Source: an uncultured Pseudomonadales bacterium (GTDB lineage Bacteria; Patescibacteriota; Microgenomatia; UBA1400; UBA1396). Taken from it: a stretch of 64,000 nt of DNA. The notes below the pieces were generated by a model that was given only the letters and a program-made list of their open reading frames with translations, ran no database searches and was not told the origin of the DNA. How positions within the stretch are numbered: position 1 is the stretch's first letter; each line of letters begins with the position of its first letter. This document shows positions 1-63,444 of this stretch, in pieces. Both the position numbers and the translations under genes were made by a program. The DNA is taken from positions 73 to 64,072 of the forward strand of contig CAZEEI010000006.1 of the NCBI GenBank assembly GCA_964511175.1. The letters run 5' to 3'.

Positions 1-38
1 ACAGAAATGTACATAAAGTTACTTGACAAATACACAAA

Positions 39-833
39 ATGACAAACGTGAGTCAATTTCAAAGTACGATTTGGGGAAATATTGGTGAACTTCAAAGCAA
101 ATTAAAAAATACTAGACAATTTGATAACGTTGTTTCAATCATGGTTGATGGCAGCTTGATTCGTGGGGATTTTCTTGATGAGGCTAGCGATATAGATCTG
201 ACCATTACGACAAGTAAACCAACAAGCGAGATCGCCAAAATTGCAGAGATAATTGATACCTATCAAAATAAATTACCAAAACGTGTTTGGCCACATAAAC
301 CTTTAAAATATGATATCCAGTGGCAGGATATCGAAACTGTTAGAGAAACAGGAGAACGAGATATAAATGAATGGTCAATTAACAATATTCCCACGGGATA
401 CCCTCGACTCTGGCTTTATGCGTTTGACGGAATTAAATTCCACAAGGTTATTTATGGTGATGATGTAACCAAACTATATACGAGCATTTTTCCTCGCGAT
501 TTTGTTCCTTTGCGTTTGGAGCGACTTAAAGGGTCAGTTACTGAGATTGGTAGCTTGGAATCTGAATACGAAAAGAATTATGGCGCAATAACCCAAGTAA
601 AAAATGCTTGGGAAATATTGAGGGCATATTGTCTTGCCACTGGTCTTGAAAGTATCAATAAAACTGATGTTTATGACCACATAAAAAAGGTTGTTACCGA
701 TAAAGATTTGTTGAAAACTATTGAAACGTTGTGGAATTTTTATCATGGAATGTACGAGGTTAAAAATGCCAAAGAGTTTAGGGGAAATCTTTACAGTTTT
801 TCTCTAAATTTAATGAAATCCTTAAAACTCTGA
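39..833 (+). CDS. nucleotidyltransferase-domain protein (Pol-beta superfamily; ANT/Lnu-like or MNT-like)
   Basis: 264 aa ORF in AT-rich island; N-terminal NTase signature G-S-x9-D-x-D (VDGSLIRGDFLDEASDIDL); helical C-terminal half. Confidence 0.6.
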   Translation: MTNVSQFQSTIWGNIGELQSKLKNTRQFDNVVSIMVDGSLIRGDFLDEASDIDLTITTSKPTSEIAKIAEIIDTYQNKLPKRVWPHKPLKYDIQWQDIETVRETGERDINEWSINNIPTGYPRLWLYAFDGIKFHKVIYGDDVTKLYTSIFPRDFVPLRLERLKGSVTEIGSLESEYEKNYGAITQVKNAWEILRAYCLATGLESINKTDVYDHIKKVVTDKDLLKTIETLWNFYHGMYEVKNAKEFRGNLYSFSLNLMKSLKL

Positions 834-975
834 ATACCCAGATGTTCTTTTAATATTTCGAGCTGTAAAATAAGATTAGCTGTAATGTAGTAGCGAAGAC
901 CAATTTTAACTTTAGAAATAAGAGATAAATCGGGATCGAGTAGATATTGTTTGATATACTCATCCTGGCTAAATA

Positions 976-1029
976 GGTCCGAGCTGGTTACGCTCCCCCG
1001 CTCCAAAAGTGACAGAAATAAACAGAAAG
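976..1029. repeat. ~50 bp direct repeat copy 1 (GGTCCGAGCTGGTTACGCTCCCCCGCTCCAAAAGTGACAGAAATAAA...)
   Basis: near-identical (~47/53) to copy at 1756-1810; contains short inverted repeat GAGCTG...(C)GCTC. Confidence 0.6.
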
Positions 1030-1056
1030 TTACAAGGAAATTACAAGAAATAATAA

Positions 1057-1632
1057 TTATTGACTAGATTTCTTCAAGTCATTAATTCTTTTAAGTACCG
1101 CCTTCAATATGTCTGGGTGATATTTTTTTACTTGCTCTAATGTGTTATCTCCAAAATCGATTGTCCATCTTGCCGCTTTTTCTATAAGATCACTCTTGTC
1201 TTTAGGAACATTGCTCGGTTTATTGGGATATTTATAAATTTTCAGTTTTCCTTCCTTTTCAAGTTTAAATAGTAATTTTGAAACATCATCGATGTTAATT
1301 TCTTCTAGAACCGGTTCAACTTTTTCTGATACTACTTCAGCCGACCATGATGTCTTACCATTTTTAAAGTTGACTGCGTTCAGTTTATATATTGATCCGG
1401 TTTTTTCGCTGTAAGCATGTTGGAATGCCCCTTCAAATTGTTCGTAGATATATGGTTTTCCGTTTTCTACTCCAGTTTGACAAATAAAGTCAAAATTATC
1501 TCCCAAGAACATTGCTGATGTAACAATATCTTTTGTAGCATACACCCATTTTTGTTTATGGGTACTTTCTCTGGGCTCCAACACAGTCAGGCTTTGAGTT
1601 TTAGATGCGTGGTAGACGAAATTCTTGTTCAT
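1057..1632 (-). CDS. hypothetical protein (191 aa, Lys-rich C-terminus)
   Basis: long ORF in AT-rich island, bracketed by the two ~50 bp direct repeats; no recognisable family. Confidence 0.5.
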   Translation of the reverse strand: MNKNFVYHASKTQSLTVLEPRESTHKQKWVYATKDIVTSAMFLGDNFDFICQTGVENGKPYIYEQFEGAFQHAYSEKTGSIYKLNAVNFKNGKTSWSAEVVSEKVEPVLEEINIDDVSKLLFKLEKEGKLKIYKYPNKPSNVPKDKSDLIEKAARWTIDFGDNTLEQVKKYHPDILKAVLKRINDLKKSSQ

Positions 1633-1755
1633 ATAATTAATTATATTTCGAAAACGATTTAATTCCCAATCTTTCTTTTAACAAATTAAGTTTTAAGATG
1701 AGGTCAGGGGTAATAAGACGGTACAAATTGAGAAATAGTCATAGAGGTAATGGCA

Positions 1756-1810
1756 GGTTCGAGCTGAGTACCGTCCCCAGCTCCAAAAGTGACAGAAATA
1801 AAAGGAATAA
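1756..1810. repeat. ~50 bp direct repeat copy 2
   Basis: matches 976-1029; lies in divergent promoter region just upstream of RBS (aagga) of the 1816 gene. Confidence 0.6.
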
Positions 1811-1815
1811 TCGCT

Positions 1816-2466
1816 ATGCCTAAATACAGCGGAGAAAAATCTTTAATGGGTTTAAAAACCTATACTACAAAAGAGACTCTTCCTCCTCCAAGAAAGCCGT
1901 ATCCACTATCAAGAAGAAGATTTTTAAAACTTGGCCTCGGTACTTTTGTGGGAGTGATGGGGGCTAGGCTTCCACTAACTAGTTCAACTCCAGAACTAGA
2001 AATGATTAAGGATTTATGGGGAATCGAAGTTGTTGGACCAAGCGATTTTATTAACACAACCCAGAGAGCTTTATCGCTGCTGAAAAATTCTAGCTACTGG
2101 GAATCTCACGTTCAGTTACTAGAAAAAATCGTAGAGGCAGAAATTACTGGAGTTCAAGTCCAGGAACCTGTAACTTACGGAGTAGACGAACCTACTTGGA
2201 AGGCCTCTGATATTTGGTATGCTGGCACGATAGTTCACGATGCTCATCATGTTAAACTTTACCAAGAAGCTGTTAGAGATCATGGTGTAGAAAATGTGGA
2301 ATACGAAATGTGGGCTGGAGTAAACGGAGAGACTCTCTGTTTACAAGTTCAACTAGAAGTTTTATTAGAGCTTAAAGCTGATAGTTATATCATTTCCTAC
2401 ATCCAGGGTTTTATAGAAAATGGACCGACTTACCAAAACACCCCTTACCCTGATCGAAATTGGTAG
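1816..2466 (+). CDS. secreted hypothetical protein with twin-arginine (Tat) signal peptide
   Basis: ATG at 1816 preceded by AAGGA RBS (listed ORF begins at an upstream GTG at 1789); SRRRFLKLGLGTFVGVMG Tat motif followed by hydrophobic stretch. Confidence 0.5.
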   Translation: MPKYSGEKSLMGLKTYTTKETLPPPRKPYPLSRRRFLKLGLGTFVGVMGARLPLTSSTPELEMIKDLWGIEVVGPSDFINTTQRALSLLKNSSYWESHVQLLEKIVEAEITGVQVQEPVTYGVDEPTWKASDIWYAGTIVHDAHHVKLYQEAVRDHGVENVEYEMWAGVNGETLCLQVQLEVLLELKADSYIISYIQGFIENGPTYQNTPYPDRNW

Positions 2467-2491
2467 CCTCCCAGCTCGTTCCTAAAATAGT

Positions 2492-2812
2492 TTAATTTTC
2501 TCCAAGTAGCCTTTGAAAACGATCCAACAAATACTCTACCCTATATCGGGTAAAAATATCCTCAGTTATCTGGTTTTGATCTCTAAATCTAACAAAATCC
2601 CTCAGTTGATTGACGTACATTTCTTTTCCGGTCGCTCTAATCTGTGACCAGTTCAGGGAAGCGGGATGCTCGATTAAATTATCCAAGCCTTGGAAGCCAA
2701 TTTCTACCCATACTACAACTCTAAATGCAGCGATACTGGCCTGCGTATATTTTTCTCGGAATATTTCTCTGTCTTTATCGGTATCGAGATTACGTAATCC
2801 ATACAGACACAT
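2492..2812 (-). CDS. hypothetical protein (106 aa)
   Basis: ORF co-directional and closely spaced with 2833-3507. Confidence 0.35.
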   Translation of the reverse strand: MCLYGLRNLDTDKDREIFREKYTQASIAAFRVVVWVEIGFQGLDNLIEHPASLNWSQIRATGKEMYVNQLRDFVRFRDQNQITEDIFTRYRVEYLLDRFQRLLGEN

Positions 2813-2832
2813 TTGACAAACACCTAAAGCTG

Positions 2833-3507
2833 CTAAACAATCTTCCTCGCAATTAACTCCTGCGCAATAATCTGCGCAGCAGCATAATTAGGATGAGTAT
2901 TGATCGGGGCAATCCTGGGATTAAGACGTCGGTATACAGGATCATATCTATCCGGCAAAATAAACGGTCGCCAGATACCTAGTTCAGCTAGCCCTTTTAA
3001 GGAAATTAAGAAATCATCATCGGGATTATCTTCATCACCAGTAGCCACCCACTGCATAACCTGTTTAAAAGATTTGTCAGCAGCCATTAGGAGCGGCGCA
3101 ATAGTCCAAGCCAGCTGGGCGTCTGGTCCCTCGCAATTAAAAAGCACTCTTTCGGCTTTGGCATAATCGCTATCGCCAGCACTGCGCGGGCGGTCTATTA
3201 ACGTTAACAACTGCAGGGCAAAAGTTAAAAAAGCTTTATCGCCCGAACAAATACAACGCTGTAAATGGCCCAGACGTCGCTTACTCACCCACTGTTGGTT
3301 AAAATCGGGGTCCGCTAATTTGGGTAATAATGTCACGTATTGTTGCCTAAGTTCGGGCAGACCACCAAGAAAATCCTGAAGTATCTGTCTCACCACTAGC
3401 TGATCTTTGCTTCTTACTTTTTCAAAAGCATTGACCCGTAAACCCCCGGTTACACCATAATCGATTAATCTCATGACGCTTAGGAATTCGTTTCCCCTAG
3501 TTTTCAT
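2833..3507 (-). CDS. hypothetical protein (224 aa)
   Basis: long ORF, no family recognised. Confidence 0.45.
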   Translation of the reverse strand: MKTRGNEFLSVMRLIDYGVTGGLRVNAFEKVRSKDQLVVRQILQDFLGGLPELRQQYVTLLPKLADPDFNQQWVSKRRLGHLQRCICSGDKAFLTFALQLLTLIDRPRSAGDSDYAKAERVLFNCEGPDAQLAWTIAPLLMAADKSFKQVMQWVATGDEDNPDDDFLISLKGLAELGIWRPFILPDRYDPVYRRLNPRIAPINTHPNYAAAQIIAQELIARKIV

Positions 3508-5183: not shown

Positions 5184-5753
5184 ATGAAAAAATCAAATCC
5201 ATTAGAAGTTAACATCGATCATATCTATGGTTGTGTACGCACTAGTCAACCTGTTGTTGAGCGGCGGGGTGATGAGGTGGTTTGCACCAGATGGCGCAGC
5301 AGAGCGCTTAGTGGGATTCCGATAACTGGTGAGTGTCCGTTAGATGACGTGGACGAACAAGCCCGCGCGGCATCGTGTTTTTTCAGTCAGTGTCTTTCCT
5401 CAGAGAGAGATGATAAGGGAATAAGACTGATCCGGGCAATTGAGGCCTTTCGCCCCTTGATCGAAAAGGATCAATCTATCACCGGAGTTAAACTAGTCGA
5501 AGCTATGCGTGATCAAGGTTATTCCCCTGAAGACGCAGCTTATGTAATAAGTATTGTCCAAGGTGCCAAATACCCCATATTTGCTGTACTCCCTGGTAGG
5601 AGCTCTAGTCCATGGGGATCCTTGTACGTCAGTGAAACTCGTTTAAGTAAACCGGACTATGTAAAAGCGCTCCTAAACTTTGATAAACAATTGACGCGTG
5701 TCTCCTGGACTGAAACTCTGCCCGACAATACGTCCGCAGACGGTAATCGTTAA
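5184..5753 (+). CDS. hypothetical protein (189 aa)
   Basis: ORF divergent from trpS. Confidence 0.4.
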   Translation: MKKSNPLEVNIDHIYGCVRTSQPVVERRGDEVVCTRWRSRALSGIPITGECPLDDVDEQARAASCFFSQCLSSERDDKGIRLIRAIEAFRPLIEKDQSITGVKLVEAMRDQGYSPEDAAYVISIVQGAKYPIFAVLPGRSSSPWGSLYVSETRLSKPDYVKALLNFDKQLTRVSWTETLPDNTSADGNR

Positions 5754-5776
5754 GGCTGTTGGTACAACCAGCACGT

Positions 5777-6010
5777 CTATCTTAGCGACTGCAGCCAGGC
5801 TAAAAATTCAGCGGCATTGTGAGCGCCCGCCCGGCTCATATACTCGTCAGGAATGGTAATCGATTCACGCGTGCCACCTGTCTGAGAACCAGACACCGGC
5901 GGACCAGAATCTTCTTCCGACACATAGCCAATCCGACTAGCATCCCAACCCAGCTTCTCACCTACTTTGGAATAAAGTAAAAATTGGATCTGTCGGTAAA
6001 TTTCTTCCAT
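5777..6010 (-). CDS. hypothetical small protein (77 aa)
   Basis: ORF only. Confidence 0.3.
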   Translation of the reverse strand: MEEIYRQIQFLLYSKVGEKLGWDASRIGYVSEEDSGPPVSGSQTGGTRESITIPDEYMSRAGAHNAAEFLAWLQSLR

Positions 6011-6710: not shown

Positions 6711-7649
6711 TTACGCCGCTAGCCGCCAAGTACCCAGTACCGGAAACTCGATATGTTTAACCTGGGGAGCAATACCCATGCCGTCTAACGTGCGGCTGAG
6801 CTTGTCGCGGTAAAGCTCATCGCGGAATAAGCCACCGACTAAATAAACTGGTAGGGGCGAGCCGCTATTTAACTGGCGGTAGACTGTTTGAACCATCACG
6901 GCCAGCTGAGCCACCGATTCATCAATCAGCGAAAGGGCGTGCGGCTCGCCCTGTTGCGCCAGCCGTTGCACGGCTGGCGCAGCCTTGGCCACCTCGTGCT
7001 TGTAATCGGCAGATTGAACAATTCGTCGCTTTAGATGAGGAAAGTCCGGCTCATCGTACTCGCGCAAAAGTTCATCGTATAACCTCTCCTTCACTAATCG
7101 GCCATCGTACATCTGAGCAACGTGGTGCAAAGCATCCCAACCTAACATAAAGCCTGAGCCCTCGTCGGAAAAAAAGTGGGACAATCCGCCGGCCTTGGCG
7201 GTTTGGCCGGACTGGTTGCGACCAAAACAGTTAGAGCCCGTCCCGGCAATTAAAAGAATACCAACCCCGTCGCTGGTAGCCGCCCACAATGCCAATTCCA
7301 CATCTGGAACAAGCTTAAAATGATTTGGTTCACTACCATCCGGCAAAGTTTCGGCAACCCACCGTTGGGCATTTTGATAATCTAATTCGGTATCGAGGCC
7401 AGCCATACCTAAAACAATATTCGTTGCCGCCAAAAAATCGCCTCTTTCTTTTTCCGTGACCAGCGCCGCTTCGTCAATCATGGCCAGCAGCCGTTCGCTG
7501 GCGCTAGTGGTACTGATTACGTCCAAATTAATACCGGGGTGCTTAGTATCCAAAAGGGCGCTGTCTAGCGTCATTGGCGCTTGGCCATTGGCTTCCCAAA
7601 GTACTACGTGGGATTTAGTTGCGCCGGCATCGATACCAAGAATATACAT
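6711..7649 (-). CDS. BadF/BadG/BcrA/BcrD-type ATPase (N-acetylglucosamine/sugar kinase-like, ASKHA fold)
   Basis: N-terminal MYILGIDAGATKSH phosphate-1 motif; ~310 aa; in carbohydrate cluster. Confidence 0.75.
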   Translation of the reverse strand: MYILGIDAGATKSHVVLWEANGQAPMTLDSALLDTKHPGINLDVISTTSASERLLAMIDEAALVTEKERGDFLAATNIVLGMAGLDTELDYQNAQRWVAETLPDGSEPNHFKLVPDVELALWAATSDGVGILLIAGTGSNCFGRNQSGQTAKAGGLSHFFSDEGSGFMLGWDALHHVAQMYDGRLVKERLYDELLREYDEPDFPHLKRRIVQSADYKHEVAKAAPAVQRLAQQGEPHALSLIDESVAQLAVMVQTVYRQLNSGSPLPVYLVGGLFRDELYRDKLSRTLDGMGIAPQVKHIEFPVLGTWRLAA

Positions 7650-7669: not shown

Positions 7670-7726
7670 AGGGGTCAGACCCTAGGCAGGGTCTGACCTC
7701 GGCTGGGGTCTGACCCTAGGCCAGGC
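7670..7726. repeat. REP family A cluster (GGGGTCAGACCC / GGGTCTGACC palindromic units x3)
   Basis: seen directly; same units at 25211-25241, 47118-47186, 47646-47697. Confidence 0.6.
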
Positions 7727-18117: not shown

Positions 18118-19041
18118 TTACTCCATAGTAGGTGGTTGATTATCGGGGATTGTGGGTGGCATTACGGTTTTTGGTACATCAGTTGGTATGATTGGCTGCG
18201 GCGTCACCGATTTTGCCCCAGCAGCAACCGTTTTCCCCGAACGGCGGTATAAATAACCGACTAACACCAGAATGAACAGGCCTAGTCCTAAAACTAATGC
18301 CGCAGCGATTAGTCGGTTGCGGCTAGGCAAGGCCGGGCTTACCGAAACTGGTGCTGGGGTTGTTTCCGCCGTCACCTCTTCTGGCGCTTCAACTGCCGGT
18401 GTAGAATCAATAATCTCTGTCTGGGGTGTGACCGACGGCACCGGCACAGCGGTAACATCTTCATCACCAATAATGCTCTCTACGGCAATCGGTGGTGCTG
18501 GGGTTGCACTCGCCTGACCAGAAGCAGTGAGGGACACACCAGTCACTTTGCCCAGAACGTCCACTGCGTCGGCCTTGCGCAGCACCTGCGTTTGGGAAGT
18601 ATCAAAGGTAAGCTGCTTGGCAGTAAAAGCAGTCGTCGAACGCAGGGTGAGGGTGGCGATTTTAACTTCACCGTTAACGGTATAGCCGGTTGGTTCGGTA
18701 GTGAGACCAACAATATCGATCACCGTTTGGCCGTCAGCATTCACCGAAGACTGCACGGGAAACATCCAACCCAGACTGGCATTAGGTAAAATAGATACCA
18801 CATTCAAGTCATTGGGGCTGGGCGCGTCATAAGTAACACGGATGGCCACGCCGGTAATCGGTTGGGTGTCACTGGATAACACCACATCCACTTTAAAATC
18901 ACGGCCAGGCGAAGCCGTAGCGCTAGCGGGCACAAAACTTAAACTCGCTTTGCCACCAGACTGAAAAGCGGCAACCGGCGAAACCAAAACTAAGATCAAC
19001 AAACCAAAACCGGTGATTGCTTGGCAGGCTCTTTTTAACAT
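18118..19041 (-). CDS. cohesin-domain protein, membrane-anchored via C-terminal TM
   Basis: signal peptide; ~150 aa beta-sandwich matching cohesin pattern (GRDFKVDVVLSS...GVAIRVTYDAP..LNVVSI...IATLTLRSTTAFTAKQLTFD); PT/PAP linker; TM + YRRSGK. Confidence 0.6.
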   Translation of the reverse strand: MLKRACQAITGFGLLILVLVSPVAAFQSGGKASLSFVPASATASPGRDFKVDVVLSSDTQPITGVAIRVTYDAPSPNDLNVVSILPNASLGWMFPVQSSVNADGQTVIDIVGLTTEPTGYTVNGEVKIATLTLRSTTAFTAKQLTFDTSQTQVLRKADAVDVLGKVTGVSLTASGQASATPAPPIAVESIIGDEDVTAVPVPSVTPQTEIIDSTPAVEAPEEVTAETTPAPVSVSPALPSRNRLIAAALVLGLGLFILVLVGYLYRRSGKTVAAGAKSVTPQPIIPTDVPKTVMPPTIPDNQPPTME

Positions 19042-19043: not shown

Positions 19044-20771
19044 TTAGTCGCCCAGAACTTCCAACTTGTTATAACCAGACAGAATTAACGCGATGTCGGT
19101 AAAGGTAATGTTGCCATCACCATTAATATCGATAATCACTGATTCTGGTTTGTCACTAACGGGGGTAGTGAGTTTGGTCACATAAGTCATCATCTTGCCA
19201 AAGTCGACAATATTAATTTTATTATCATTATTAAAATCGCCGATGATGAGTTTCCATTCATCTTTATTGTGGCGGGGCAACTCGTTTAGCTTACCTTTAT
19301 ACAAGTAAACCTGCGTAAACTTGCGGCGCAAGGTGTTGTCACCCTTAACGGTAACGGTGTAGTAACCAGAGACAAAATCGTTCGGCAAAGAGCTGGTTAC
19401 GACCCGATAGCTGCTGGAGGTTGTATTCCAAGTAGCTTCCTGATTAGACAATTCGGCTACCACATCCGTAGCCGTTTCGACAGTAATTTTAACTTTGCGG
19501 GCACCAACGTTAGTGGTGATGCCTTTAACATTGAAGTTCAAACCGATGGTAGTTTCCGCCAAGAAATCCTTGACCTCGCTGTACCCATCTTCGCCAGCAA
19601 TGTTGTAAACCCAAACACGCACTGCCCCATTGGCAGTAGCTGGCACCGTGGCGACAATTTCGGTGTTAGTCCACTTCTTCACTGTTCCTAGAGCGGTACC
19701 AAAGTAGACATAATACTGAGTGGGACCAAAGTTGTAGCCTTTGATCGTCACGTCTGTACCGGCTGGTGCCGACGCCGGTGTCAAACTCTCCACTACTGGC
19801 TTGAGATTAACGTAATAGTAGCGGCTGATCGGATCAGAAAGATTATTCGCTGCATCGGTCACCTGGGCATGGATGGTGTTAAGACCATGCGGGCGAACTT
19901 TTTCGTATATCGGATCATTGGACCAAGCACTCCAAGAAACACCATCCTCACTGAAGCGATAACGCAGGAAACCGGGATAAGTAATGAGTGTGTCACTGGG
20001 CCGATCAGGCTTATCAACGGCCTTAACCGTAAACTTTATGTTGCGGTCAATAACGGTGCTGGCGGCAGCTGGACCTTGATCAAACTGAACCGTGGGTTTT
20101 TGGGTGTCATTAACAAAAGTTAGAGTCAGAGGCGGCACGGTTTGGAGAACATCCATACCAGCGTTGTCACCACTCTTGGCGATGGCGATGGCTTTGCCCG
20201 GATCTTGCTCTAAAGTGATTTGCCCTAGGGCGGTAGACATGAATGCAATGCGCGCAATTTTTACCCTGCCGGTGGCGGGAGTCTTGTAACCCGATGTACT
20301 TAGACAAGTTAAACTGAAATCGATGGTCACCTTTTTGTCGCCAGCCTTAGTTTCCCGTTCGACCGTGTTGATTTGGTCAGATAGGCAGGGATCAATACTA
20401 TCGGCCAAAGACAGGATTTGCGTGCCAGCCACATCTGCATTGAGGTCGATCACCATCAAATTGGGTGACGCACCAGCACCGGAGTTATAACCTATCTGAA
20501 AAGCTACACCGGATACTGCTGTACCCGCTGTATCCAAGTAGAGATCAACGAAAAAAATATCACCGCTATAACGACTGGTTGATTCTGTTTCCATGGTTAG
20601 CTTAACCGTGCCTAAAACCGAAGCAGCCCGGGAACGAACTTCCGTAGTCTCACCGCCCCCTTGGAAATAGTGTGAGAAGACATACCAACCGACGCCGCCG
20701 GTTAAGACCAAAAAGATAATACCGATCAGGGAATAAACCACCAGACGACCGCGCGTTAGTCTGTAAGACAT
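19044..20771 (-). CDS. multidomain surface protein with N-terminal cohesin-like module, Ig-like domains and C-terminal type-I dockerin
   Basis: C-terminal duplicated Ca-binding dockerin repeats IIGDFNNDNKINIVDFGKMM and IDINGDGNITFTDIALILSGY; N-terminal signal anchor; paralog at 31879-33615. Confidence 0.7.
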   Translation of the reverse strand: MSYRLTRGRLVVYSLIGIIFLVLTGGVGWYVFSHYFQGGGETTEVRSRAASVLGTVKLTMETESTSRYSGDIFFVDLYLDTAGTAVSGVAFQIGYNSGAGASPNLMVIDLNADVAGTQILSLADSIDPCLSDQINTVERETKAGDKKVTIDFSLTCLSTSGYKTPATGRVKIARIAFMSTALGQITLEQDPGKAIAIAKSGDNAGMDVLQTVPPLTLTFVNDTQKPTVQFDQGPAAASTVIDRNIKFTVKAVDKPDRPSDTLITYPGFLRYRFSEDGVSWSAWSNDPIYEKVRPHGLNTIHAQVTDAANNLSDPISRYYYVNLKPVVESLTPASAPAGTDVTIKGYNFGPTQYYVYFGTALGTVKKWTNTEIVATVPATANGAVRVWVYNIAGEDGYSEVKDFLAETTIGLNFNVKGITTNVGARKVKITVETATDVVAELSNQEATWNTTSSSYRVVTSSLPNDFVSGYYTVTVKGDNTLRRKFTQVYLYKGKLNELPRHNKDEWKLIIGDFNNDNKINIVDFGKMMTYVTKLTTPVSDKPESVIIDINGDGNITFTDIALILSGYNKLEVLGD

Positions 20772-20825
20772 ACTGGTTTTATGCTACGCGATTAATGGTG
20801 GAAGTGTCAATCAAGGTAAATTTTG

Positions 20826-20899
20826 TGCGCGCACAGGGACTCGAACCCCGAACCGCGAAGGTATAAGCTTCGTGCTCTAACCAATTGAGCTATGCGCGC
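20826..20899 (-). tRNA. tRNA-Ile, anticodon UAU (TAT)
   Basis: manual cloverleaf fold: 7-bp acceptor GCGCGCA/TGCGCGC, D-arm GCTC..GAGC, anticodon stem CGAAG/CTTCG with loop CTTATAC, 5-nt variable loop, T-arm CGGGG-TTCGAGT-CCCTG; no encoded CCA. Confidence 0.7.
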
Positions 20900-20900: not shown

Positions 20901-20978
20901 CTTAGGGTGTCACCCTCCAGAGGTAAAATGAATCAGGGTGTCACCCTAAAATTTTTTACCTCTGGAGGGTGACACCTT
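20901..20978. repeat. REP family B element (AGGGTGTCACCCTCCAGAGGTAAAA ... TTTTACCTCTGGAGGGTGACACC nested palindrome)
   Basis: seen directly; abuts the 5' end of tRNA-Ile. Confidence 0.65.
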
Positions 20979-25210: not shown

Positions 25211-25241
25211 GGGGGTCTGACCCTAGACAGGGTCAGACCCC
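25211..25241. terminator. perfect 13-bp-stem hairpin (REP family A single unit GGGGGTCTGACCC-TAGA-CAGGGTCAGACCCC) followed by T5; likely bidirectional terminator
   Basis: seen directly between convergent smpB and 25254-25454 gene. Confidence 0.5.
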
Positions 25242-25577: not shown

Positions 25578-26219
25578 CTAAAGTTGAGATTCAATCTCAT
25601 CGCGGAGATCAGCAAAATCCATCCTTCGTCCGTTGAGGAAAAAAGTGGGCGTACTATTAAGGTTGTAACTCTCGGCTAGACGCAGGTCGCGTTCCACTAG
25701 GTTTTTGGTTGTTTCGCTTTCTAAATCCGCAGTAAACCGATCAAGATCTAATTTTAGATCCCGAGCCATAGTTTGCCAGGCCTCCTGGGGATCACTTTGC
25801 CGCGACCACTCCGTTTGGGAAGCAAACAAGCGATCGTGCATTTCCCAAAACTTACCCTGCTGGGCTGCTGCCACCGCTGCTTGAGCAGCCAAGCCAGCCT
25901 GAGGATGAGCCCCTAATAAGGGAAAATGACGAAAAACCAAACGTACTTCGGCCGGATGGGCATCGACCAAAGCCCGCACATAACCAGCCATAGTTTGGCA
26001 AGCTGGACACTCAAAATCAGAAAACTCCACAATGGTAAAACGGGCGCTGTCCGTAGCACCACGCTGCGGAGCATCCGCCGGCACTAACTCATCTAAAGGA
26101 ATCTCGACTTGAGCCTGCTGCTCCAGCTGCTGGGTGCTTCGGGCAAAAAACCAGGCCGCACCCGCAATTAATCCTACTGTAGCCAATAACGTCACCAACA
26201 ATAACTTCAAGTTTTGCAT
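25578..26219 (-). CDS. DsbA-family thiol:disulfide oxidoreductase (secreted)
   Basis: FSDFECPACQ CxxC motif in thioredoxin fold; N-terminal signal/TM (start at MQNLKLLLVTLL). Confidence 0.75.
   Translation of the reverse strand: MQNLKLLLVTLLATVGLIAGAAWFFARSTQQLEQQAQVEIPLDELVPADAPQRGATDSARFTIVEFSDFECPACQTMAGYVRALVDAHPAEVRLVFRHFPLLGAHPQAGLAAQAAVAAAQQGKFWEMHDRLFASQTEWSRQSDPQEAWQTMARDLKLDLDRFTADLESETTKNLVERDLRLAESYNLNSTPTFFLNGRRMDFADLRDEIESQL
25584..25599. repeat. REP family C-like palindrome (TTGAGATTCAATCTCA) inside dsbA 3' end
   Basis: seen directly; same palindrome type as the three copies flanking the 39245 transposase. Confidence 0.3.
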
Positions 26220-30948: not shown

Positions 30949-31869
30949 TTAGCGTCGGCGCAGCAAACTATAGCCACCGGCTGTTAACATTCCACCACCC
31001 GCCAAAGTAATAATTACTAAAGCGGCCGGACTGGCGGTTGCCGGAATCGGCTGAGTAACTTCTACCTGACCGGTAGTAGTCGTACTACTGTAAACAGTGG
31101 GCGTTGGCGTGGGTGTAGCAGTGGTGCCACTATAGACAGTGGGCGTAGGTGTGGGCGTAGGTGTAGCCCCAACTGGGGTAGGAGTTGGCACCGGAGTAGG
31201 TGTCGGCGTAGCGCCAACCGGCGTGGGCGTGGGCGTGGGCACGGGTGTCGGCGTAGCGGTGGGCGTTGGTGTAGGTGTAGGGGTGGGAGTGGGCTGTACC
31301 GAAGCGCCACTAGCACTATAAGAACCATTAGTCACCCCACCTAAAATATCGGTAGCATCAGATTTCTTGAGCATCTGTGATTGAGTTAAATCGAACGTGA
31401 CTGCCTTACTAGTAAAGGCCGCGTTAGCTCGAAAAGTAATCGTGGCAATCTTCGTATTGGCAGTGGTACTAGAGCCATTAGTCGAGGAATTAACCGCCAT
31501 TAAATCAACTTGGGTTTGGCCGCCAGCCGTATTGATATCAGTGACTGGGAAAGACCAGCCGCCACCCAACGCCGTATTTCCTTCAATGGTTACGGCCTGC
31601 AGATCGGTACCAGTAAAAACCAAACGCGAGGCAATGCCAGAAATAGCCTGCCCACCTGTGGTAAACATAATATCTACGGTGAAGTTTTGTCCGGTGGTCA
31701 TCGTGCCGGAACTGGGTTGGAGCAATAAACGCCCTACTCCGCCGGCGAGATAAGCTTGCGAGGCAACCGCCCCATTAAGCCAGAGAACCAAAGCCAAGAG
31801 GCCAACCGTCAGCCAACGGAAAACCGACTTCTTCGCCGAGTGTGTAATGTTCCCGGGCAGCGTATTCAT
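30949..31869 (-). CDS. cohesin-domain protein, membrane-anchored (paralog of 18118-19041)
   Basis: signal peptide; cohesin-pattern beta-sandwich (GQNFTVDIMFTT...ASRLVFTGTDLQAVTI...IATITFRANAAFTSKAVTFD); long (TP)n linker; C-terminal hydrophobic + LLRRR. Confidence 0.6.
   Translation of the reverse strand: MNTLPGNITHSAKKSVFRWLTVGLLALVLWLNGAVASQAYLAGGVGRLLLQPSSGTMTTGQNFTVDIMFTTGGQAISGIASRLVFTGTDLQAVTIEGNTALGGGWSFPVTDINTAGGQTQVDLMAVNSSTNGSSTTANTKIATITFRANAAFTSKAVTFDLTQSQMLKKSDATDILGGVTNGSYSASGASVQPTPTPTPTPTPTATPTPVPTPTPTPVGATPTPTPVPTPTPVGATPTPTPTPTVYSGTTATPTPTPTVYSSTTTTGQVEVTQPIPATASPAALVIITLAGGGMLTAGGYSLLRRR
31139..31321. repeat. tandem repeat DNA encoding (TP)n / (PTPV)n linker
   Basis: seen directly; yields mirror-frame poly-GV ORF. 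Confidence 0.5.
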
Positions 31870-31878: not shown

Positions 31879-33615
31879 CTACTTTTCGGCATCACCGGGC
31901 GTTTCCAACTTGGTGTAGTTAGTAAGCAACAGGGATATGTCGGCCGCTGTTAAGAAATTGTCCCCGTTCAAATCATATTTACGGGTGGTATCTTTTATGG
32001 CATTAGATAGACCAACAAAATTACCTTCTTTTACCATGTCACTGAAATCCAGAATCGTAATTTTGTTGTCGCCGTTCACATCACCTACTAGCATAAGATC
32101 AGTGGCGGCCTTTTTACTGACCGCGTTCTGACTACCACGGGTCAAATAAACATTAGTAAAAAGGCGACGCAGGCGTGAAGTCTCCTTCACCGAAACTGAA
32201 TAATAAGCCGTAATGAGATTGGCATTATCGGTCAGAGGCGGCGTTACCACCACATAGGCATTTTCGGTGCCATTCCAAGTTGCATCCAAATTGGTAAACT
32301 TTTGCTCATAATTAACGCGGGTAACAGTCACTGCCAGCTTTTTCACACCACGATCTTGAGCAATCCCCTGCAAATTCATCACAATTTTTAAGTTGGTGTC
32401 CAAAGCAAAACTAACTTTGTTAGAAGCAGGTCGACCGCTAGGCAAAACATGCACCGTACCACCATTAGCGGTAGCTGGTACGATCGCCACAATCGTCTCA
32501 TCCGTCCATAGCGGCAGACTCGTAGTTTGGACATAGGCTGTGCCAAAGTACACCAAATATTTAGTACTGCCAAAATTGAAACCGTGAATAGTGATCTGCT
32601 GACCACCTGCGGCGTGGGTTGGCACGATACTGGTAATGGTTGGTGTTAGATCAACCAAGAAATTCTGCGAAATTTCCGTACTAATGTTACCAATTTTATC
32701 CCGACCACGCACATATATGGTATGACCGGTAGTAATATTGTGCGTCAAAGATGCTGTAACCGAAGTATCGGTTGTCCAAGCAGCGGGCCAACCGGCAGCG
32801 TCAAAACGGTACTGGAACTCAACCGCATTAGCTAAGCCAACCGTGTCGGCCGCGCGCTGCGGATTTTCCGTACCTTTCCAGTTAAAGTTGACGTTAGCAC
32901 TCTTAGTCGCCAGTTTGCCATCAGCCTGGGTAGTTAAAGTGTTGGTGGTAAATTGAACCACCGGCGGCTGAGCGTCGGCTGAAATCTTGATGGTGATCGA
33001 CGGGATCGCGTTCAAGGTATCATTACCATCGCTCTTACGGGTGACAATCGCCTTAGTTGGATCATGTTGGATAATTCGTTCCGCCGCCGCATTAGCGCGA
33101 AAAACGATAGTGGCAATTACCACTTCTCCATTGCTGTTATAACCGGCACCACTCGCACAAGTAGCACCAAAATCAATAAACACTCGGCGCTCCCCAGAAG
33201 CCTCGCGACTTACTTCGTTAATTTGATCGGCACAGCCAGGCATGTTCTGGAGAACCTTCGACTGAATCTGAATACCTGATCTAGTGGTGTCAGTATCAAC
33301 TACTTCTAAATCAGGTGTGGTACCAGCCGAAACATAATTGAGACCCAGCGCTACCGCCGAAACTGCCGTATTACCGGTGTTTAAGACAATATCAACCGGG
33401 AACTCATCTTTAACGTAGCGTGTATTTGAACCGGTTTTAAGCGTAACCGTAGCTGTACCAGCTGCTCCCACACTAGCCCGACCGCGAATTTCCGTGGTTT
33501 GTCCTGGCTGGAAGAAACGATTCATAACAAAGAAGGTAACTAGACCACCAATCGCCAGAACGGCCACAATCACACCAAGTGTTAAATAAGTACGAACCCG
33601 ACGGGACAGCGGCAT
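31879..33615 (-). CDS. multidomain surface protein with N-terminal cohesin-like module and C-terminal type-I dockerin (paralog of 19044-20771)
   Basis: dockerin repeats VGDVNGDNKITILDFSDMV and YDLNGDNFLTAADISLLLTNY; N-terminal signal anchor. Confidence 0.7.
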   Translation of the reverse strand: MPLSRRVRTYLTLGVIVAVLAIGGLVTFFVMNRFFQPGQTTEIRGRASVGAAGTATVTLKTGSNTRYVKDEFPVDIVLNTGNTAVSAVALGLNYVSAGTTPDLEVVDTDTTRSGIQIQSKVLQNMPGCADQINEVSREASGERRVFIDFGATCASGAGYNSNGEVVIATIVFRANAAAERIIQHDPTKAIVTRKSDGNDTLNAIPSITIKISADAQPPVVQFTTNTLTTQADGKLATKSANVNFNWKGTENPQRAADTVGLANAVEFQYRFDAAGWPAAWTTDTSVTASLTHNITTGHTIYVRGRDKIGNISTEISQNFLVDLTPTITSIVPTHAAGGQQITIHGFNFGSTKYLVYFGTAYVQTTSLPLWTDETIVAIVPATANGGTVHVLPSGRPASNKVSFALDTNLKIVMNLQGIAQDRGVKKLAVTVTRVNYEQKFTNLDATWNGTENAYVVVTPPLTDNANLITAYYSVSVKETSRLRRLFTNVYLTRGSQNAVSKKAATDLMLVGDVNGDNKITILDFSDMVKEGNFVGLSNAIKDTTRKYDLNGDNFLTAADISLLLTNYTKLETPGDAEK

Positions 33616-38899: not shown

Positions 38900-39196
38900 A
38901 TGGCCGATTCGCTGCAATCTTTGTTGTCACAGTTTCAGGTCACCACCCAAAACAAGTACATTTCGCAAGAGTTTCAAGAATATGCTTACCGACTGGCCAT
39001 GGCTTTGGACGGCGAAACCAATGCAAAAACGGTGGGAATGTGTATGCGCCTGGTTAAGCGAAAGCCGCGGGCCTTGTTGGAACAAGCGCACAGTTTTATT
39101 CAAGACGCTAAGGCCCGCAACAAGGTTGCGCTTTTTTTGTGGAAATTAAAGCAACTTGAGATCCAATCTCAACCAAAAGTTAGCCAGGAAGATTAA
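38900..39196 (+). CDS. hypothetical protein (98 aa); C-terminus runs into REP-C palindrome
   Basis: ORF only. Confidence 0.35.
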   Translation: MADSLQSLLSQFQVTTQNKYISQEFQEYAYRLAMALDGETNAKTVGMCMRLVKRKPRALLEQAHSFIQDAKARNKVALFLWKLKQLEIQSQPKVSQED

Positions 39197-39735
39197 ACTT
39201 AGAAATATTCCTCTTGAGGAAAACAACGTTGAGATCGAATCTCAATGGTAACTATTCTGATCGCTTTCGCTGTTATTGTTTTTTCGATGGCCAAACTCTA
39301 CACGCGCAAAAAGTTTATCGCTGGCGCTTCTTATCACATTTTTAATCGAGGCAATAATCGATCAGCTATCTTTTTTTCTGAGGCTGATTTTCTGTTTTTT
39401 CGTCAGGCGGCTAACAAGGCTCTGATCAAAGTCGAAGGAGAAGTAGAAACACAAGTTTTCGCCCTGATGCCTAATCACTATCATTTGCTGGTTAAACAAA
39501 AAACGGAAAGGGCTATCAGTAAATTTATGCGTTCGACTATATGTGCCTACGCAAAATATATGAATCGAAAATACCAACGGGAAGGTACTTTGTTTAATGG
39601 TATCTATTGCGCTAAATTACTAACTACGGCAGCGGAAATTACTGCTGTACGCAAATATATTCTAGCTAATCCTGCTGAAGCTGGCTTGGTTGGTTGGCGC
39701 CACGTCGGTTTGCATATCTGAGGTCCAATCTCAAA
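39156..39735 (+). mobile_element. RAYT-REP unit 1: IS200-like tyrosine transposase flanked by TTGAGAT-N3-ATCTCAA palindromes (39156-39172, 39228-39245 upstream; degenerate 39719-39735 downstream)
   Basis: palindromes seen directly immediately bracketing the transposase ORF. Confidence 0.5.
39245..39721 (+). CDS. IS200/IS605-family Y1 HuH transposase-like protein (REP-associated tyrosine transposase type)
   Basis: ~155 aa; HuH motif PNHYHLLV; IFNRGNNR N-terminal motif; C-terminal Tyr (YILANP); two paralogs at 47222 and 60749. Confidence 0.7.
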   Translation: MVTILIAFAVIVFSMAKLYTRKKFIAGASYHIFNRGNNRSAIFFSEADFLFFRQAANKALIKVEGEVETQVFALMPNHYHLLVKQKTERAISKFMRSTICAYAKYMNRKYQREGTLFNGIYCAKLLTTAAEITAVRKYILANPAEAGLVGWRHVGLHI

Positions 39736-45644: not shown

Positions 45645-45727
45645 GCCGGCTTACCCAAGCGGTCAACGGGGGCAGACTGTAAATCTGCTGGCGTACGCCT
45701 ACGGAGGTTCGAGTCCTTCAGCCGGCA
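45645..45727 (+). tRNA. tRNA-Tyr (anticodon GUA), class II long variable arm
   Basis: acceptor GCCGGCT/AGCCGGC, anticodon stem GCAGA/TCTGC loop CTGTAAA, variable arm TGGCGTACGCCTAC, T-arm GGAGG-TTCGAGT-CCTTC; 83 nt. Confidence 0.8.
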
Positions 45728-45729
45728 CA

Positions 45730-45788
45730 TGAGGGTGCTGAGGGTGTCACCCTCCAGAGGTAGAAAACTTCAGGGTTACACCCTACAA
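45730..45788. repeat. REP family B element (GAGGGTGCTGAGGGTGTCACCCTCCAGAGGTAGAAAACTTCAGGGTTACACCCT)
   Basis: seen directly; abuts 3' end of tRNA-Tyr. Confidence 0.6.
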
Positions 45789-45795: not shown

Positions 45796-47163
45796 ATGCC
45801 TGCCTCGCTGTTTGATCCAGATTTGGTTAGACTCCTTGAGGGAGACCGACTCATCCTCAGCAAAACTCAGTTCCCGATTGTCACTGTTTCCGCCAGCTTT
45901 CGCGACGTAGTCGAACTACAGCACGCGGTATCGGATGACGTAAATTATCCCGACGTGGTTTTTTCGCGAGCGCATTACTCGATGGCTCTGGCGATTGCCA
46001 TAGCAGCCTGGGGTAAAGAACGTGTTGATCGGGAAAAGGCTTGGCTGGTTGACCCCACTAACTACGTCAACAAAAACGATTGGCAAAAAATTGCCTTTTC
46101 CGAACAAATTGGGCGCATTTTGGCGCGCAATGATTTTTTGGCCTGGATTAAAAAAAATTTAGTCGATCGCTACGGACGCAAAAAACTGCCTATCACCGCC
46201 GCTATCACGCCGCCGCTGCTTTTCCTCACCGAGCAAATCCATCGGCCAATCATCAGCGTACATGACCAAACCGGCAATATCCTGGCAGGAACGGGCAAAA
46301 CAGTGATTCAGGTAGTGACTGATCCCTTCGTGCGTCCGGAATATTTGTACCATGGCGAACTACCCACTATGCACTATTGTGTCTTCGACGAACAAACGCG
46401 AACCGACTTATTAACCATGGCTCAAGACCTGGAGAAAGACGTGCCACCGGAACGGGTGACGGTGACGGGGCCGCCGGTCGATCCGCGTATTGTGGCCGCC
46501 CGTGACCAAAAAAGTGCCGACGGTTGGTATCGCCGCCCACTACACTTGTTATTGACGACCGGCGGCCTAGGCACTAATAAAGAAGAATTACACACTTTGT
46601 TGGAACAACTACTACCTTTAATTCGGCAAAAACCGCTGCCTATCCAGTTGGTTTACTATGCCGGCACTAATGAAGATCACGCCCACATGGTTCAAGACCT
46701 GGCCAAAAAACACGGTATTCGCCTGGCTAATCCGAACGATCAGCATGCCCCATTGCGCCTGCTTTACGCCGACGATGTCGTGGTGGCGAATCAGTATTTA
46801 ATTGTTTATGGCTTCCCATGGGCCGACGTAGTTTTCACTAAGCCCTCTGGCGATATGGCCTACGATGCGGTGGCGGCCGGCTGCGGCCTGTTCTTCCTTG
46901 AACCCTGGGGAGCCTGGGAACGAACTATTCAGCGACTTTTTATTCATCAGGGTTTGGCTCGCAACGCCGAGCCGACCGCCATTGTGGGTCAATTACAAAC
47001 TTTGGCTCAACCCAACCATCGATCTTGGCTAACCGCCAGTATTAATAAGGCGCTTTCACTGCCGCCCACTTACTTGCGAGGAGCCGCCAACATCTTGGCC
47101 GTCGCCCGTCGCGCTGGGAGGGGTCAGACCTTGGCTGGGGTCAGACCCACCCCCTGGGTCTGA
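45796..47163 (+). CDS. GT-B glycosyltransferase, GT28-like (MGDG-synthase/MurG-like)
   Basis: LLLTTGGLGTN and C-terminal TKPSGDMAYDAVAAGCGLFFLEPWGAWE resemble MGDG synthase/MurG motifs; C-terminal residues are read-through of REP-A. Confidence 0.5.
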   Translation: MPASLFDPDLVRLLEGDRLILSKTQFPIVTVSASFRDVVELQHAVSDDVNYPDVVFSRAHYSMALAIAIAAWGKERVDREKAWLVDPTNYVNKNDWQKIAFSEQIGRILARNDFLAWIKKNLVDRYGRKKLPITAAITPPLLFLTEQIHRPIISVHDQTGNILAGTGKTVIQVVTDPFVRPEYLYHGELPTMHYCVFDEQTRTDLLTMAQDLEKDVPPERVTVTGPPVDPRIVAARDQKSADGWYRRPLHLLLTTGGLGTNKEELHTLLEQLLPLIRQKPLPIQLVYYAGTNEDHAHMVQDLAKKHGIRLANPNDQHAPLRLLYADDVVVANQYLIVYGFPWADVVFTKPSGDMAYDAVAAGCGLFFLEPWGAWERTIQRLFIHQGLARNAEPTAIVGQLQTLAQPNHRSWLTASINKALSLPPTYLRGAANILAVARRAGRGQTLAGVRPTPWV

Positions 47164-47186
47164 CCCTGCCATGGGTCGGACCCGTC
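47118..47186. repeat. REP family A cluster (GGGGTCAGACC x4, mixed orientation)
   Basis: seen directly, upstream of RAYT paralog 2. Confidence 0.65.
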
Positions 47187-52694: not shown

Positions 52695-53086
52695 ATTTAT
52701 ACCCTCTATCCTTTTTCTCTAGGCTCCTATCGCCTAAAATAAAAATCCTACACCCCAAAATACCTTCTATTTCGGCTTATAGGACTCATTAAAACCTGAT
52801 TATAACAGCTCAGCTCACGAAAAAGCAAGCTTCAGCTTTTTGTGAATTGACACTTTTGACTTCGCCAAATGTGTCAACAACTAAAGCGAGAAACACCTGC
52901 TATCCACAAAATGAGTCCATGACTGAGTAGTAAAAACAGGCTCCATCTTCTCTTTGCAACACGACAACCTTTACCCGTTTGTAACTTTTGTCTGTTTTGA
53001 ATTCTGCCTTAAACTCCACTACTGCTTCAAAAGTAAAATAGACGGAACCATTTTGGTAGCAGATGTATTGGTAGGTCCCGGAATCC

Positions 53087-53803: not shown

Positions 53804-53808
53804 CTTGC

Positions 53809-54789: not shown

Positions 54790-54837
54790 AGTTGCTCATG
54801 GATGAGTGAATTGTAGACCTGTGTATTTTTGTAATGC

Positions 54838-55461: not shown

Positions 55462-55502
55462 GTGTCGCCATAGTATAATTCATCTTATAGGATTGCACAA
55501 TT

Positions 55503-56645: not shown

Positions 56646-56693
56646 GTTCCAATACCTATTGTTTTTTCAACAATACTAAAACTTCCTAAACAA

Positions 56694-57495: not shown

Positions 57496-57499
57496 AGTT

Positions 57500-63435: not shown

Positions 63436-63444
63436 AATAAGTTG

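Follow-up and report, generated by a model that had tools for sequence, protein, structure and literature searches.

The window analysed here comprises 64,000 nucleotides of contig CAZEEI010000006.1 from an uncultured bacterium (assembly GCA_964511175.1), and our subject is the AT-rich island at its left end, positions 1-2470, which we consider a candidate array of integrative gene cassettes. The guanine-plus-cytosine (GC) content of the island is 0.354 at 1-1000 and 0.351 at 1001-2000. To the right it climbs to 0.405 at 2001-3000 and to 0.477 and 0.533 over the next two kilobases, against about 0.50 in most of the window. This bears out an earlier sequence-only reading, which had noted a sharp drop in GC over 1-2470. 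The three open reading frames (ORFs) named in that reading are all present: a nucleotidyltransferase (NTase) gene at 39-833 on the plus strand, ORF2 at 1057-1632, and ORF3 at 1816-2466 on the plus strand. ORF2 lies on the minus strand, a point that had gone unmentioned.

The same reading had described two direct repeats of ~50 bp and ~90% identity, each with an inverted repeat, flanking the middle gene. The repeats, at 975-1027 and 1755-1807, are real and beyond chance, as 0 of 100 shuffles matched either repeat half, but over their 53 nt they are 85% identical; the 3'-most 23 nt (GCTCCAAAAGTGACAGAAATAAA) are the same in both copies. An inverted repeat is likewise present in both, as GAGCTG...CAGCTC in copy 2 and in an imperfect version in copy 1, but it folds no better than shuffled sequence, with z-scores for single-stranded DNA folding of -1.5 and +0.5 for the two repeats and -0.14 for the family consensus, none of them significant. 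The 53 nt are only the core of a conserved unit that extends ~45 nt further to the right and 90-180 nt to the left. Short-read contigs end exactly at the repeats, and the NCBI contig (64,142 bp) likewise begins at one. A third, diverged junction lies 14 nt left of base 1 in the Logan contig L001 (L-numbers are our labels for retrieved contigs and loci). L001 reaches 47 nt left of the window and contains a terminator-like hairpin (folding z -2.4), TCTCCA, a diverged right half and the NTase start codon. The repeats do more than bracket the middle gene. They belong to a periodic series of at least three junctions, and each gene occupies a cassette of its own. No further copy of the repeat was found in the other low-GC islands of the window.

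A cassette of this family consists of a 5' arm beginning with AAAGTGACAGAAAT, one cargo gene and a 3' arm. The 5' arm, or R motif, is ~15-45 nt long and has an 11-nt periodic, ACAGAAA-like pattern; the 3' arm is 90-180 nt long and terminates in AGGTTCGAGC-N-TTACCAGCTCCA. An exact 21-mer search located five loci in GTDB genomes, one in a Candidatus Blackburnbacteria metagenome-assembled genome (MAG) and four in MAGs labelled Gammaproteobacteria or Pseudomonadales, and a 20-mer search located 13 loci in metagenomes. In true copies, the conserved AAAGTGACAGAAATAA sits directly after the CCA of a tRNA, after a pseudo-end that we call type B, or after rarer variants. The real tRNA ends in this position belong to tRNA-Gly (tcc, ccc or gcc) and once to tRNA-Thr(tgt). 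The type-B pseudo-end, which is the form present in the window, comprises 31 nt (AGGTTCGAGCrAAGTACrGTyACCmGCTCCA). Matches of viral contigs to short patterns (L008-L010, L016, L021 and most of L032-L060) were rejected as chance.

Using nhmmer with a profile hidden Markov model built from the repeat copies, we found arrays in which full copies lie 450-760 nt apart. Every array closes with a left-half-only copy, the similarity ending at GCTCCA. In total we counted ~30 cassettes at 17 non-redundant loci, mostly in arrays that start exactly after the CCA of tRNA-Gly. The junctions between cassettes are exact in every array, a type-B end being followed directly by an R motif, and the cargo genes follow the orientation of the tRNA in all cassettes but three, namely ORF2 in the window and, in L061, ORF2 and a neighbouring NUDIX gene. 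The most frequent cargo is NUDIX (5 cassettes); CutA1, P-loop kinases and 2',5' RNA ligase occur in 2 cassettes each, and a YbaK-like editing domain, HIT, cytidine deaminase, LOG/SLOG, M23 peptidase and methyltransferase in single ones. NTase cargo occurs in the window, L024 and L027. The presence of the repeat in many genomes and metagenomes contradicts the possibility, raised earlier, of a repeat absent elsewhere that would mark a native, duplicated promoter.

Several cassettes recur at different sites with the same exact boundaries. The CutA1 cassettes of L014 and L015 are ~88% identical; the former lies between tRNA-Gly(tcc) and tRNA-Arg, the latter after tRNA-Gly(ccc) and ahead of a YbaK cassette, and their homology begins right after the CCA and ends at GCTCCA. 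The NTase cassette of the window recurs, at 82% amino-acid identity, as the second unit of a tRNA-Gly(ccc) array in L024 and as a lone unit at tRNA-Gly(gcc) in L027, where a left-half-only copy and then host genes come next. The ORF2 cassette recurs in L061 directly at tRNA-Gly(tcc), with its gene inverted as in the window and its end lost. Remoter homologues of ORF2, in L028, L029 and L062, lack cassette ends and are ordinary genes of the chromosome. Since NTase, CutA1 and ORF2 cassettes recur separately, the three cargo genes of the window are independent units and form neither an operon nor a pair.

Two blocks, GGTTCGA and TTACCNGCTCCA, are common to the tRNA-Gly and type-B ends. They are separated by a spacer of 11 nt in the cassette and phage ends and of 6 nt in the tRNA (GGTTCGA-N11-TTACCAGCTCCA versus GGTTCGA-N6-TNACCCGCTCCA), a shift of 5 bp. 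In serine integrases, the motif bound by the zinc-ribbon domain (ZD) is at positions 16-24 of the attP half-site and at 11-19 of the attB half-site, while the proximal motif is fixed (PMC3783163). As this 5-bp ZD shift (PMC3783163) matches the spacers, the type-B end corresponds to a P-type half-site and the tRNA end to a B-type half-site. An A/C difference to the left of GCTCCA keeps its side in attL and attR, from which we infer that the crossover falls inside GCTCCA.

Other identities of the repeats were considered and rejected. For a fragment of a tRNA or tmRNA, neither ARAGORN nor Rfam gives a hit at the repeats, and the five extra nucleotides of the pseudo-end preclude a T arm. For a structured RNA or an attC-like hairpin, RNAalifold on eight copies yields a 4-bp GAGC/GCTC stem without covariation, pairings between the arm and the end tried by hand also failed, and the DNA folds are no better than those of shuffles. 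A scan for a sigma-70 promoter in the 5' arm makes no call, and copy 2 is too short for a -10 element plus leader. A Tn7-like or CRISPR-associated transposon end is contradicted by the absence of a TGT terminus and of a transposase. Reverse-transcriptase template switching at CCA ends found no support and was superseded by the evidence for a serine integrase.

Part of this evidence comes from phages. A search of viral contigs with the type-B end returned two related phage-like contigs, of which IMGVR_UViG_3300025010_001927 (54,262 bp; L064/L066) is a complete prophage at tRNA-Gly(tcc). At one of its ends, the tRNA gene is directly followed by the reversed gene of a 543-aa large serine recombinase (LSR; Resolvase 1.3e-22, Zn_ribbon_recom 8e-8), after which come a cI-like helix-turn-helix protein with an M78 peptidase, two DNA methylases and the terminase. 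At the other end, a giant structural protein, an M23 endolysin-like protein and holin-like proteins are followed by a cassette 3' arm, identical to the cassette arm of L003 at 90 of 110 positions. This arm terminates in ...GGTTCGAGCCAATTACGGTCACCAGCTCCA, with the GCTCCA end, and the host terminator and a tRNA-Leu lie beyond it. The other arm of the phage attP, TATCGGAATCGTTTTTCGAAAGAG, carries TCGAA, and the P side carries TTCGA; by hand count, both motifs lie at a distance of 19 nt from a centre within GCTCCA. The second contig, L031, has the same phage end, followed by an R-motif cassette; a terminal repeat was not found in it. In two further viral contigs, L076 and L116, unrelated serine recombinase genes lie reversed beside the tRNA-Gly end and read across it, as at an attL. 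A recombinase with Resolvase and zinc-ribbon domains thus lies beside the attachment site in the prophage and not inside the window.

The right ends of both phage-like contigs contain what resembles an empty cassette, in which an R-like motif (AAAGTGACAGAAAC / AAAGTAATAGAAAC) precedes the type-B end by ~185 nt with no gene between them (L031, reverse, ~5728-5906; L064, reverse, ~7170-7354).

When the phage attP is rebuilt from both prophage ends, the integrase ORF runs antisense into the 3' arm and ends in ...DSDM, then ELVTVIGSNHFSLGDYITPDLFFQLQSLKEHMGIDSFANYQ and the stop codon (557 aa); in the integrated prophage, the tail is encoded by the antisense strand of the tRNA instead, giving the 543-aa form. 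Translated antisense in the same frame, both phage arms (2/2) and 15 of 16 cassette arms yield a single peptide family, ELVTVLRSNL..ITPDLILQLNALK.H..I.SF with a terminal stop, which is the LSR tail in its attP form, and the arm variants of 30 nt and 80 nt are in-frame insertions. The one exception is the arm of the HIT cassette in L005 at the end chosen for it, where a VTVIGSN..ITPDL motif lies further inward. Since the integrase gene spans attP, each cassette 3' arm is also an antisense copy of the last 37-70 integrase codons. Judged from their sequence, the repeats first noticed in the window are attP-type junctions, with the 3' ends of serine-integrase genes as their left parts.

On this anatomy, the island can be read from end to end. 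Cassette 1 opens with a diverged 5' arm (1-38, plus strand), whose junction, ...GACCGTTtttgAACGGTC TCTCCA followed by AATGAG..., adjoins the intrinsic-terminator-like hairpin of a leftward gene; in the alignment to the NTase cassettes of L024 and L027, homology begins at ...AAATGTACATAAAGTTAC. Its cargo (39-833, plus strand) is a 264-aa two-domain nucleotidyltransferase with a predicted ANT(9)/ANT(3'')/AadA-like fold. Its 3' arm (834-1005, minus strand) is an antisense remnant of the serine-integrase C-terminal tail, found in a minus-strand ORF at 791-1006 that contains ...ITANLILQLEILKEHLGIQSFKDF..., and the cassette is closed by a P-type half-site at 975-1005 (AGGTCCGAGCTGGTTACGCTCCCCCGCTCCA). 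This half-site and the R motif from 1006 onward together form repeat copy 1. The R motif is the 5' arm of cassette 2 (1006-1050, plus strand; AAAGTGACAGAAATAAACAGAAAGTTACAAGGAAATTACAAG), with an 11-nt periodic nnACAGRAAAt pattern. The cargo of cassette 2, ORF2 (1057-1632, minus strand; 191 aa), is inverted inside its own cassette and has a promoter-like site of its own at 1669-1640 (minus strand, 10/12). The 3' arm (1640-1785, minus strand) is an antisense integrase-tail remnant with one stop, which falls between ELGTVLSSNLPLPL and ITPDLILKLNLLKERLGIKSF; it is the closest match to the NTase-cassette arm of L024 and L027, and it is closed by a P-type half-site at 1755-1785 (AGGTTCGAGCTGAGTACCGTCCCCAGCTCCA). 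Repeat copy 2 is composed of this half-site and, from 1786, the truncated 5' arm of cassette 3 (1786-1815, plus strand; AAAGTGACAGAAATAAA, then AAGGA, then the ATG of ORF3). ORF3 (1816-2466, plus strand; 216 aa) carries the twin-arginine signal SRRRFLK. A possible degenerate right end of the array, W3 (2443-2470, plus strand; TGATCGAAATTGGTAGCCTCCCAGCTCG), overlaps the ORF3 stop. It was read by eye and with low confidence, and neither a position weight matrix nor ungapped scans ranked it above chance; its antisense translation ELGGYQFRSG resembles ELGTVLSSNL, and GC content increases from W3 onward.

We consider it likely that positions 1-2470 hold at least three non-autonomous integrative cassettes in tandem, each with a single gene, that were moved by an LSR acting in trans. 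In such a system, a cassette would act as a small circle, its attP being the junction of the 3' end (...GGTTCGA-N11-TTACCAGCTCCA) with the 5' arm (AAAGTGACAGAAAT...), and the recombinase supplied in trans would most likely be of the LSR type found in the temperate phages of these bacteria. The primary attB would be the tRNA-Gly 3' end, GGTTCGA-N6-TNACCCGCTCCA, with strand exchange inside GCTCCA; alternative targets, all ending in CTCCA, would be tRNA-Thr, a terminator hairpin (the case in this window) and the end of a previously inserted cassette. Since each cassette ends in a target-like sequence, cassettes could accumulate head to tail. Movement of a site-specific kind is favoured by the exact junctions behind more than ten tRNA ends and by the recurrence of identical units at different sites. 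The evidence therefore favours, among the three candidates of the sequence-only reading, the site-specific recombination cassette with repeat ends, and its proposal that the region was acquired horizontally is supported as well.

Several points weigh against an array of LSR-mobilized cassettes. We found no recombinase gene in the window or in any cassette locus, and no integrase beside the arrays, where the flanks of L024, L027, L061 and L062 and the window were covered. Since the window contig starts at a repeat, the left flank of the array is outside the contig. The cassette 5' arm (AAAGTGACAG...) is unlike the P' arm of the LSR phage and has no clear dyad symmetry with the 3' end, to which it bears a weak GTTAC/GTGAC relation; the right half-sites of the hosts are not conserved. 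The right boundary of the array, at ~2470, is poorly defined. Further, canonical serine integrases recombine only attP with attB, although Ccr recombinases are reported to be relaxed. As an occupied, attL-like site is not a canonical target, arrays would have to grow through a relaxed enzyme, by way of multi-cassette circles or by homologous recombination. Lastly, the phage right ends are in effect cassettes without cargo, so some arrays could be stacked prophage remnants.

Extended to all units, this last point becomes an explanation of its own, in which each unit is the right-end remnant (moron gene, integrase tail, attR) of a mostly deleted tRNA-Gly phage and the stacks result from repeated rounds. 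It would account for the 3' arms, as integrase-tail remnants, and for the resemblance of the L031 and L064 phage right ends, with their R-like motif ~185 nt upstream, to a cassette lacking cargo; the missing end of the ORF2 cassette in L061 and the stop codon in the tail of the window arm at 1640-1785 (W2) would fit it too. Yet random deletion would not set AAAGTGACAG right after the CCA at more than ten independent tRNA junctions, nor would it give one cassette the same boundaries beside different tRNA-Gly isoacceptors or at a site outside tRNA genes, and the cassette-cassette junctions are precise in every array. We therefore regard prophage debris as an unlikely origin of the units.

The 3' ends of tRNA genes are classic targets of tyrosine integrases, and an integron- or tycheposon-like tyrosine recombinase could have used GCTCCA as the overlap of an att core and the arms as arm-type binding sites. 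The arms are indeed long and conserved, with repeated AAGTGACAG / AAGTTACA motifs, and tycheposon islands also have partial tRNAs and successive integrations at one site. However, we saw no tyrosine recombinase in the window or at any locus, with none among the 25 of 56 Pfam families listed, a scan for the box-II motif was negative, and the only complete element with this end encodes a serine recombinase. The 5-bp shift and the coding of an integrase tail are specific to the serine-integrase reading, and the cassette ends have neither an attC-like R''/L''-L'/R' structure nor significant hairpins, which together make a tyrosine recombinase very improbable.

For a HUH Y1 transposase of the IS200/IS605 or RAYT (REP-associated tyrosine transposase) kind, acting by 'peel and paste' with insertion 3' of CTCCA and an element end that re-creates the target, one could cite that insertion is always 3' of ...CTCCA, without target duplication or terminal inverted repeats, and that three Y1_Tnp/RAYT-like proteins are encoded in the window. 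These proteins were rejected as cassette movers, as their genes have repetitive extragenic palindrome (REP)-like partners of their own, unrelated to the cassette ends; the genes are also absent from the other loci, and the cassette ends lack significant hairpins. We give this mechanism hardly any credence.

Finally, a native locus with a duplicated promoter or terminator, or an NTase-ORF2 pair serving as toxin-antitoxin or defence system, as the sequence-only reading had considered, is extremely improbable: the position of the 5' arm 31-65 nt upstream of most cargo starts, its -35-like GTGACA and the weak similarity of the NTase to MntA and CD-NTase models are outweighed by the occurrence of the unit in many unrelated contexts with differing cargo, by ORF2 being antisense to its upstream motif, by a sigma-70 scan that makes no call, by NTase and ORF2 cassettes that occur independently and apart elsewhere, by scores far below the cut-offs of the MntA and CD-NTase family models, and by the lack of a HEPN partner.

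The three cargo proteins of the window were compared with known families and structures. The NTase is weakly confirmed by Pfam (NTP_transf_2, E 1.3e-5). Its AlphaFold2 model (pLDDT 90) matches 6xz0, 7uy4, 5g4a and 4cs6 in Foldseek searches against the PDB, with E-values of 8e-8 to 2e-6, TM-scores of 0.55-0.65 and 12-15% identity; the best matches are AAD(9), ANT(3'')(9) and AadA, while ANT(4'), LinB, MNT and CD-NTases are more distant. With a TM-score of ~0.6, the ANT-like character proposed for it holds at the level of the fold, and the model suggests an aminoglycoside-adenylyltransferase-like fold. Like ANT(9)/AAD(9), ANT(3'')(9) and AadA, the protein has an N-terminal Pol-beta-like NTase domain and a C-terminal helical domain, and it contains the G-S...D-x-D motif; unlike ANT(9), ANT(3'') and AadA, it passes no named-family model, and identity to them is 12-15%. 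There was no match above cut-off in NCBIfam and none by sequence in the PDB. MntA scored E 0.065 and 13 bits against a cut-off of 60 bits, and the PADLOC cyclase (CD-NTase) model scored E 5e-4 over ~75 residues only, also below cut-off. The nearest relatives outside cassettes are clostridial hypothetical proteins (48% identity).

ORF2 belongs to a family found across the candidate phyla radiation (CPR), with 77 homologues, some of them named Dojkabacteria or WS6, and matches no Pfam family above cut-off. Its AlphaFold2 model (pLDDT 94) has a weak Foldseek match to the rifampin ADP-ribosyltransferase Arr (2hw2, E 7e-3, probability 0.94), and residues H8, Y31 and E64 are conserved or invariant in the family; on this modelled structure, ORF2 possibly has an ADP-ribosyltransferase-like fold.

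ORF3 is predicted to be secreted by the twin-arginine translocation (Tat) pathway. The motif SRRRFLKLGLGTFVGVMGA at residues 31-49 presents S/T-R-R-x-F-L-K with a hydrophobic stretch, and the earlier proposal of a Tat signal agrees with the visible SRRRFLK and with a family member that matches Pfam TAT_signal. The protein is not an unclassifiable orphan: its C-terminal domain of ~150 aa belongs to an uncharacterised family of secreted or cell-surface proteins that is widespread and counts 494 representative homologues. Some of these carry the domain as a fusion with SLH or Cu_amine_oxidN1 wall-binding domains, and W134, A136, H141, H145, G168, E172 and Q179 are invariant. No relative of this domain was found in Pfam or the PDB.

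Other features were seen in the retrieved loci. A second cassette family with the same GCTCCA junction occurs in L003 (3936-4030, 6812-6900) and L004 (1911-2010, 3140-3187). Its 5' arm of ~95 nt, ..ATCGAACT..TTTTAGCTTCA..GGGAATCGAACT, looks like antisense tRNA fragments, its 3' end differs (..ACGTCAGGAkCTCCA), and among its cargo are a methyltransferase, a signal peptidase and a Bro-N protein. In L018, the array of three cassettes has a flanking direct repeat of ~35 nt at 1048-1087 and 3300-3339, AAAAAsTTyTAATTT..GTCACTAAG(GA)GCTCCA, which could be a duplicated non-tRNA target or a mini-unit without cargo. In L028 (JGI Ga0130016_10000008, 719 kb), a 20.6-kb locus around the ORF2 homologue contains 12 tRNA genes amid small diverse genes, among them a 264-aa gene directly after tRNA-Pro; ends of the cassette family studied here were not found in this locus, and tRNA-anchored systems other than these cassettes may exist.

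In the window itself, two ORFs just right of the array (2492-2812 and 2833-3507, both on the minus strand) have intermediate GC contents of 0.39 and 0.45 and no match in Pfam, NCBIfam or PADLOC. The low-GC stretches 53001-58000 and 62001-64000 (0.35-0.42), in which the cassette repeat was not found, contain small ORFs without Pfam families, including weak paralogues at 62651-63013 and 63049-63435. A duplicated gene pair, 19044-20771 and 31879-33615, encodes TIG-plus-dockerin proteins of 575 and 578 aa that are 37% identical, each preceded by one of two paralogues of ~306 aa (18118-19041 and 30949-31869, 40% identical). A tRNA-Ile with the anticodon TAT, which is uncommon in bacteria, lies at 20825-20899 on the minus strand (69 bits to the Rfam tRNA model).

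The three RAYT-like HUH Y1 paralogues, all in a single 64-kb stretch of a bacterium with a small genome, are encoded at 39245-39721, 47222-47701 and 60749-61213, are 40-45% identical and share the motif PNHYHLL; they match Pfam Y1_Tnp at ~1e-11 and NCBIfam REP_Tyr_transpos at 9.5e-13, the latter below its cut-off. Three families of REP-like palindromes are dispersed between the genes of the window, and each family flanks one RAYT-like gene: GGGTCAGACC at 7672-7716, 25213-25240, 47121-47173 and 47648-47693; GGGTGTAACCC at 20905-20946, 45742-45783, 59560-59632, 60696-60737 and 61213-61285; and TTGAGATCGAATCTCAA at 25586-25598 and 39158-39243. Some copies adjoin tRNA genes, namely the above tRNA-Ile and a tRNA-Tyr at 45645-45728. 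Palindromes and genes look like three separate REPIN/RAYT systems.

The cassettes share traits with several known systems. In the staphylococcal cassette chromosome (SCC), including SCCmec and ccr-less pseudo-SCC elements, large serine recombinases act at the 3' end of one housekeeping gene; SCC arrays are tandem composites split by short direct repeats, and some elements need the recombinase in trans. The target of SCC is rlmH and that of the window cassettes tRNA-Gly, and units of 3-60 kb in SCC stand against single genes of 0.45-1 kb here. Also unlike SCC, the recombinase seems to be phage-borne, its gene spans attP, a remnant of its tail is present in each cassette, and the hosts are of CPR type.

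The resemblance to integrons lies in co-oriented, mostly promoter-proximal single-gene cassettes with a recombination site at the 3' side, in one fixed primary insertion point and in a cargo of small enzymes (NUDIX, NTase, kinases) whose functions are diverse or unknown. Unlike integrons, the arrays have no IntI, attI or Pc beside them, their anchor is a tRNA gene and their geometry that of a serine integrase; unlike attC, the cassette ends show no GTTRRRY boxes on reading the sequence, and their folding is not significant.

As in the A118/LI, Bxb1 and phiC31 systems, a recombinase with Resolvase and zinc-ribbon domains lies beside attL, and the half-sites have a proximal and a distal motif in common, the distal one 5 bp further out in attP than in attB. 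By hand count, the phage attP also appears roughly symmetric around a point within the GCTCCA that both sites share. In contrast to canonical LSR systems, the 3' end of the integrase gene contains attP, so that integration exchanges the tail of the protein, and many small cassettes without an integrase share the P half-site, with occupied, attL-like targets included.

Tycheposons and tRNA islands of Prochlorococcus are similar in that flexible genes pile up by tRNA genes through successive integrations, with partial tRNA-like repeats. However, tycheposons have their own integrase and replication modules, cargo of up to 10 kb or more and att sites of ~40 nt, whereas the window cassettes are integrase-less single genes with conserved arms. 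As the cassettes carry no integrase or replication gene, anchoring at a tRNA is the only trait shared.

We tentatively propose, as a possibility that is still rather doubtful, that the cassettes form a gene-capture system of CPR/Patescibacteria, analogous to integrons and run by phage-type LSRs, in which each cassette would also provide an alternative C-terminal exon for any integrase that inserts beside it, possibly tuning its activity or directionality. That there is an integron-like but distinct capture system has, in our judgement, a fair chance. Searches of full texts brought up no account of cassette arrays anchored at tRNA-Gly in Patescibacteria.

Genome-engineering tools now use few phage integrases, each with one fixed site pair; a natural serine integrase serving many minimal cargo circles, if this reading is true, would be relevant to them. 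The signature GGTTCGA-N11-TTACCAGCTCCA followed by AAAGTGACAG can be used to find such arrays in metagenomes, together with the assembly breaks they cause. In CPR/Patescibacteria, genomes are tiny, recognised mobile elements are few and gene exchange is poorly understood. If true, the tRNA-Gly cassette system would provide a concrete and searchable route of gene exchange for these organisms, with a cargo of small nucleotide-handling enzymes: NUDIX and HIT proteins, NTases, kinases, deaminases and methyltransferases.

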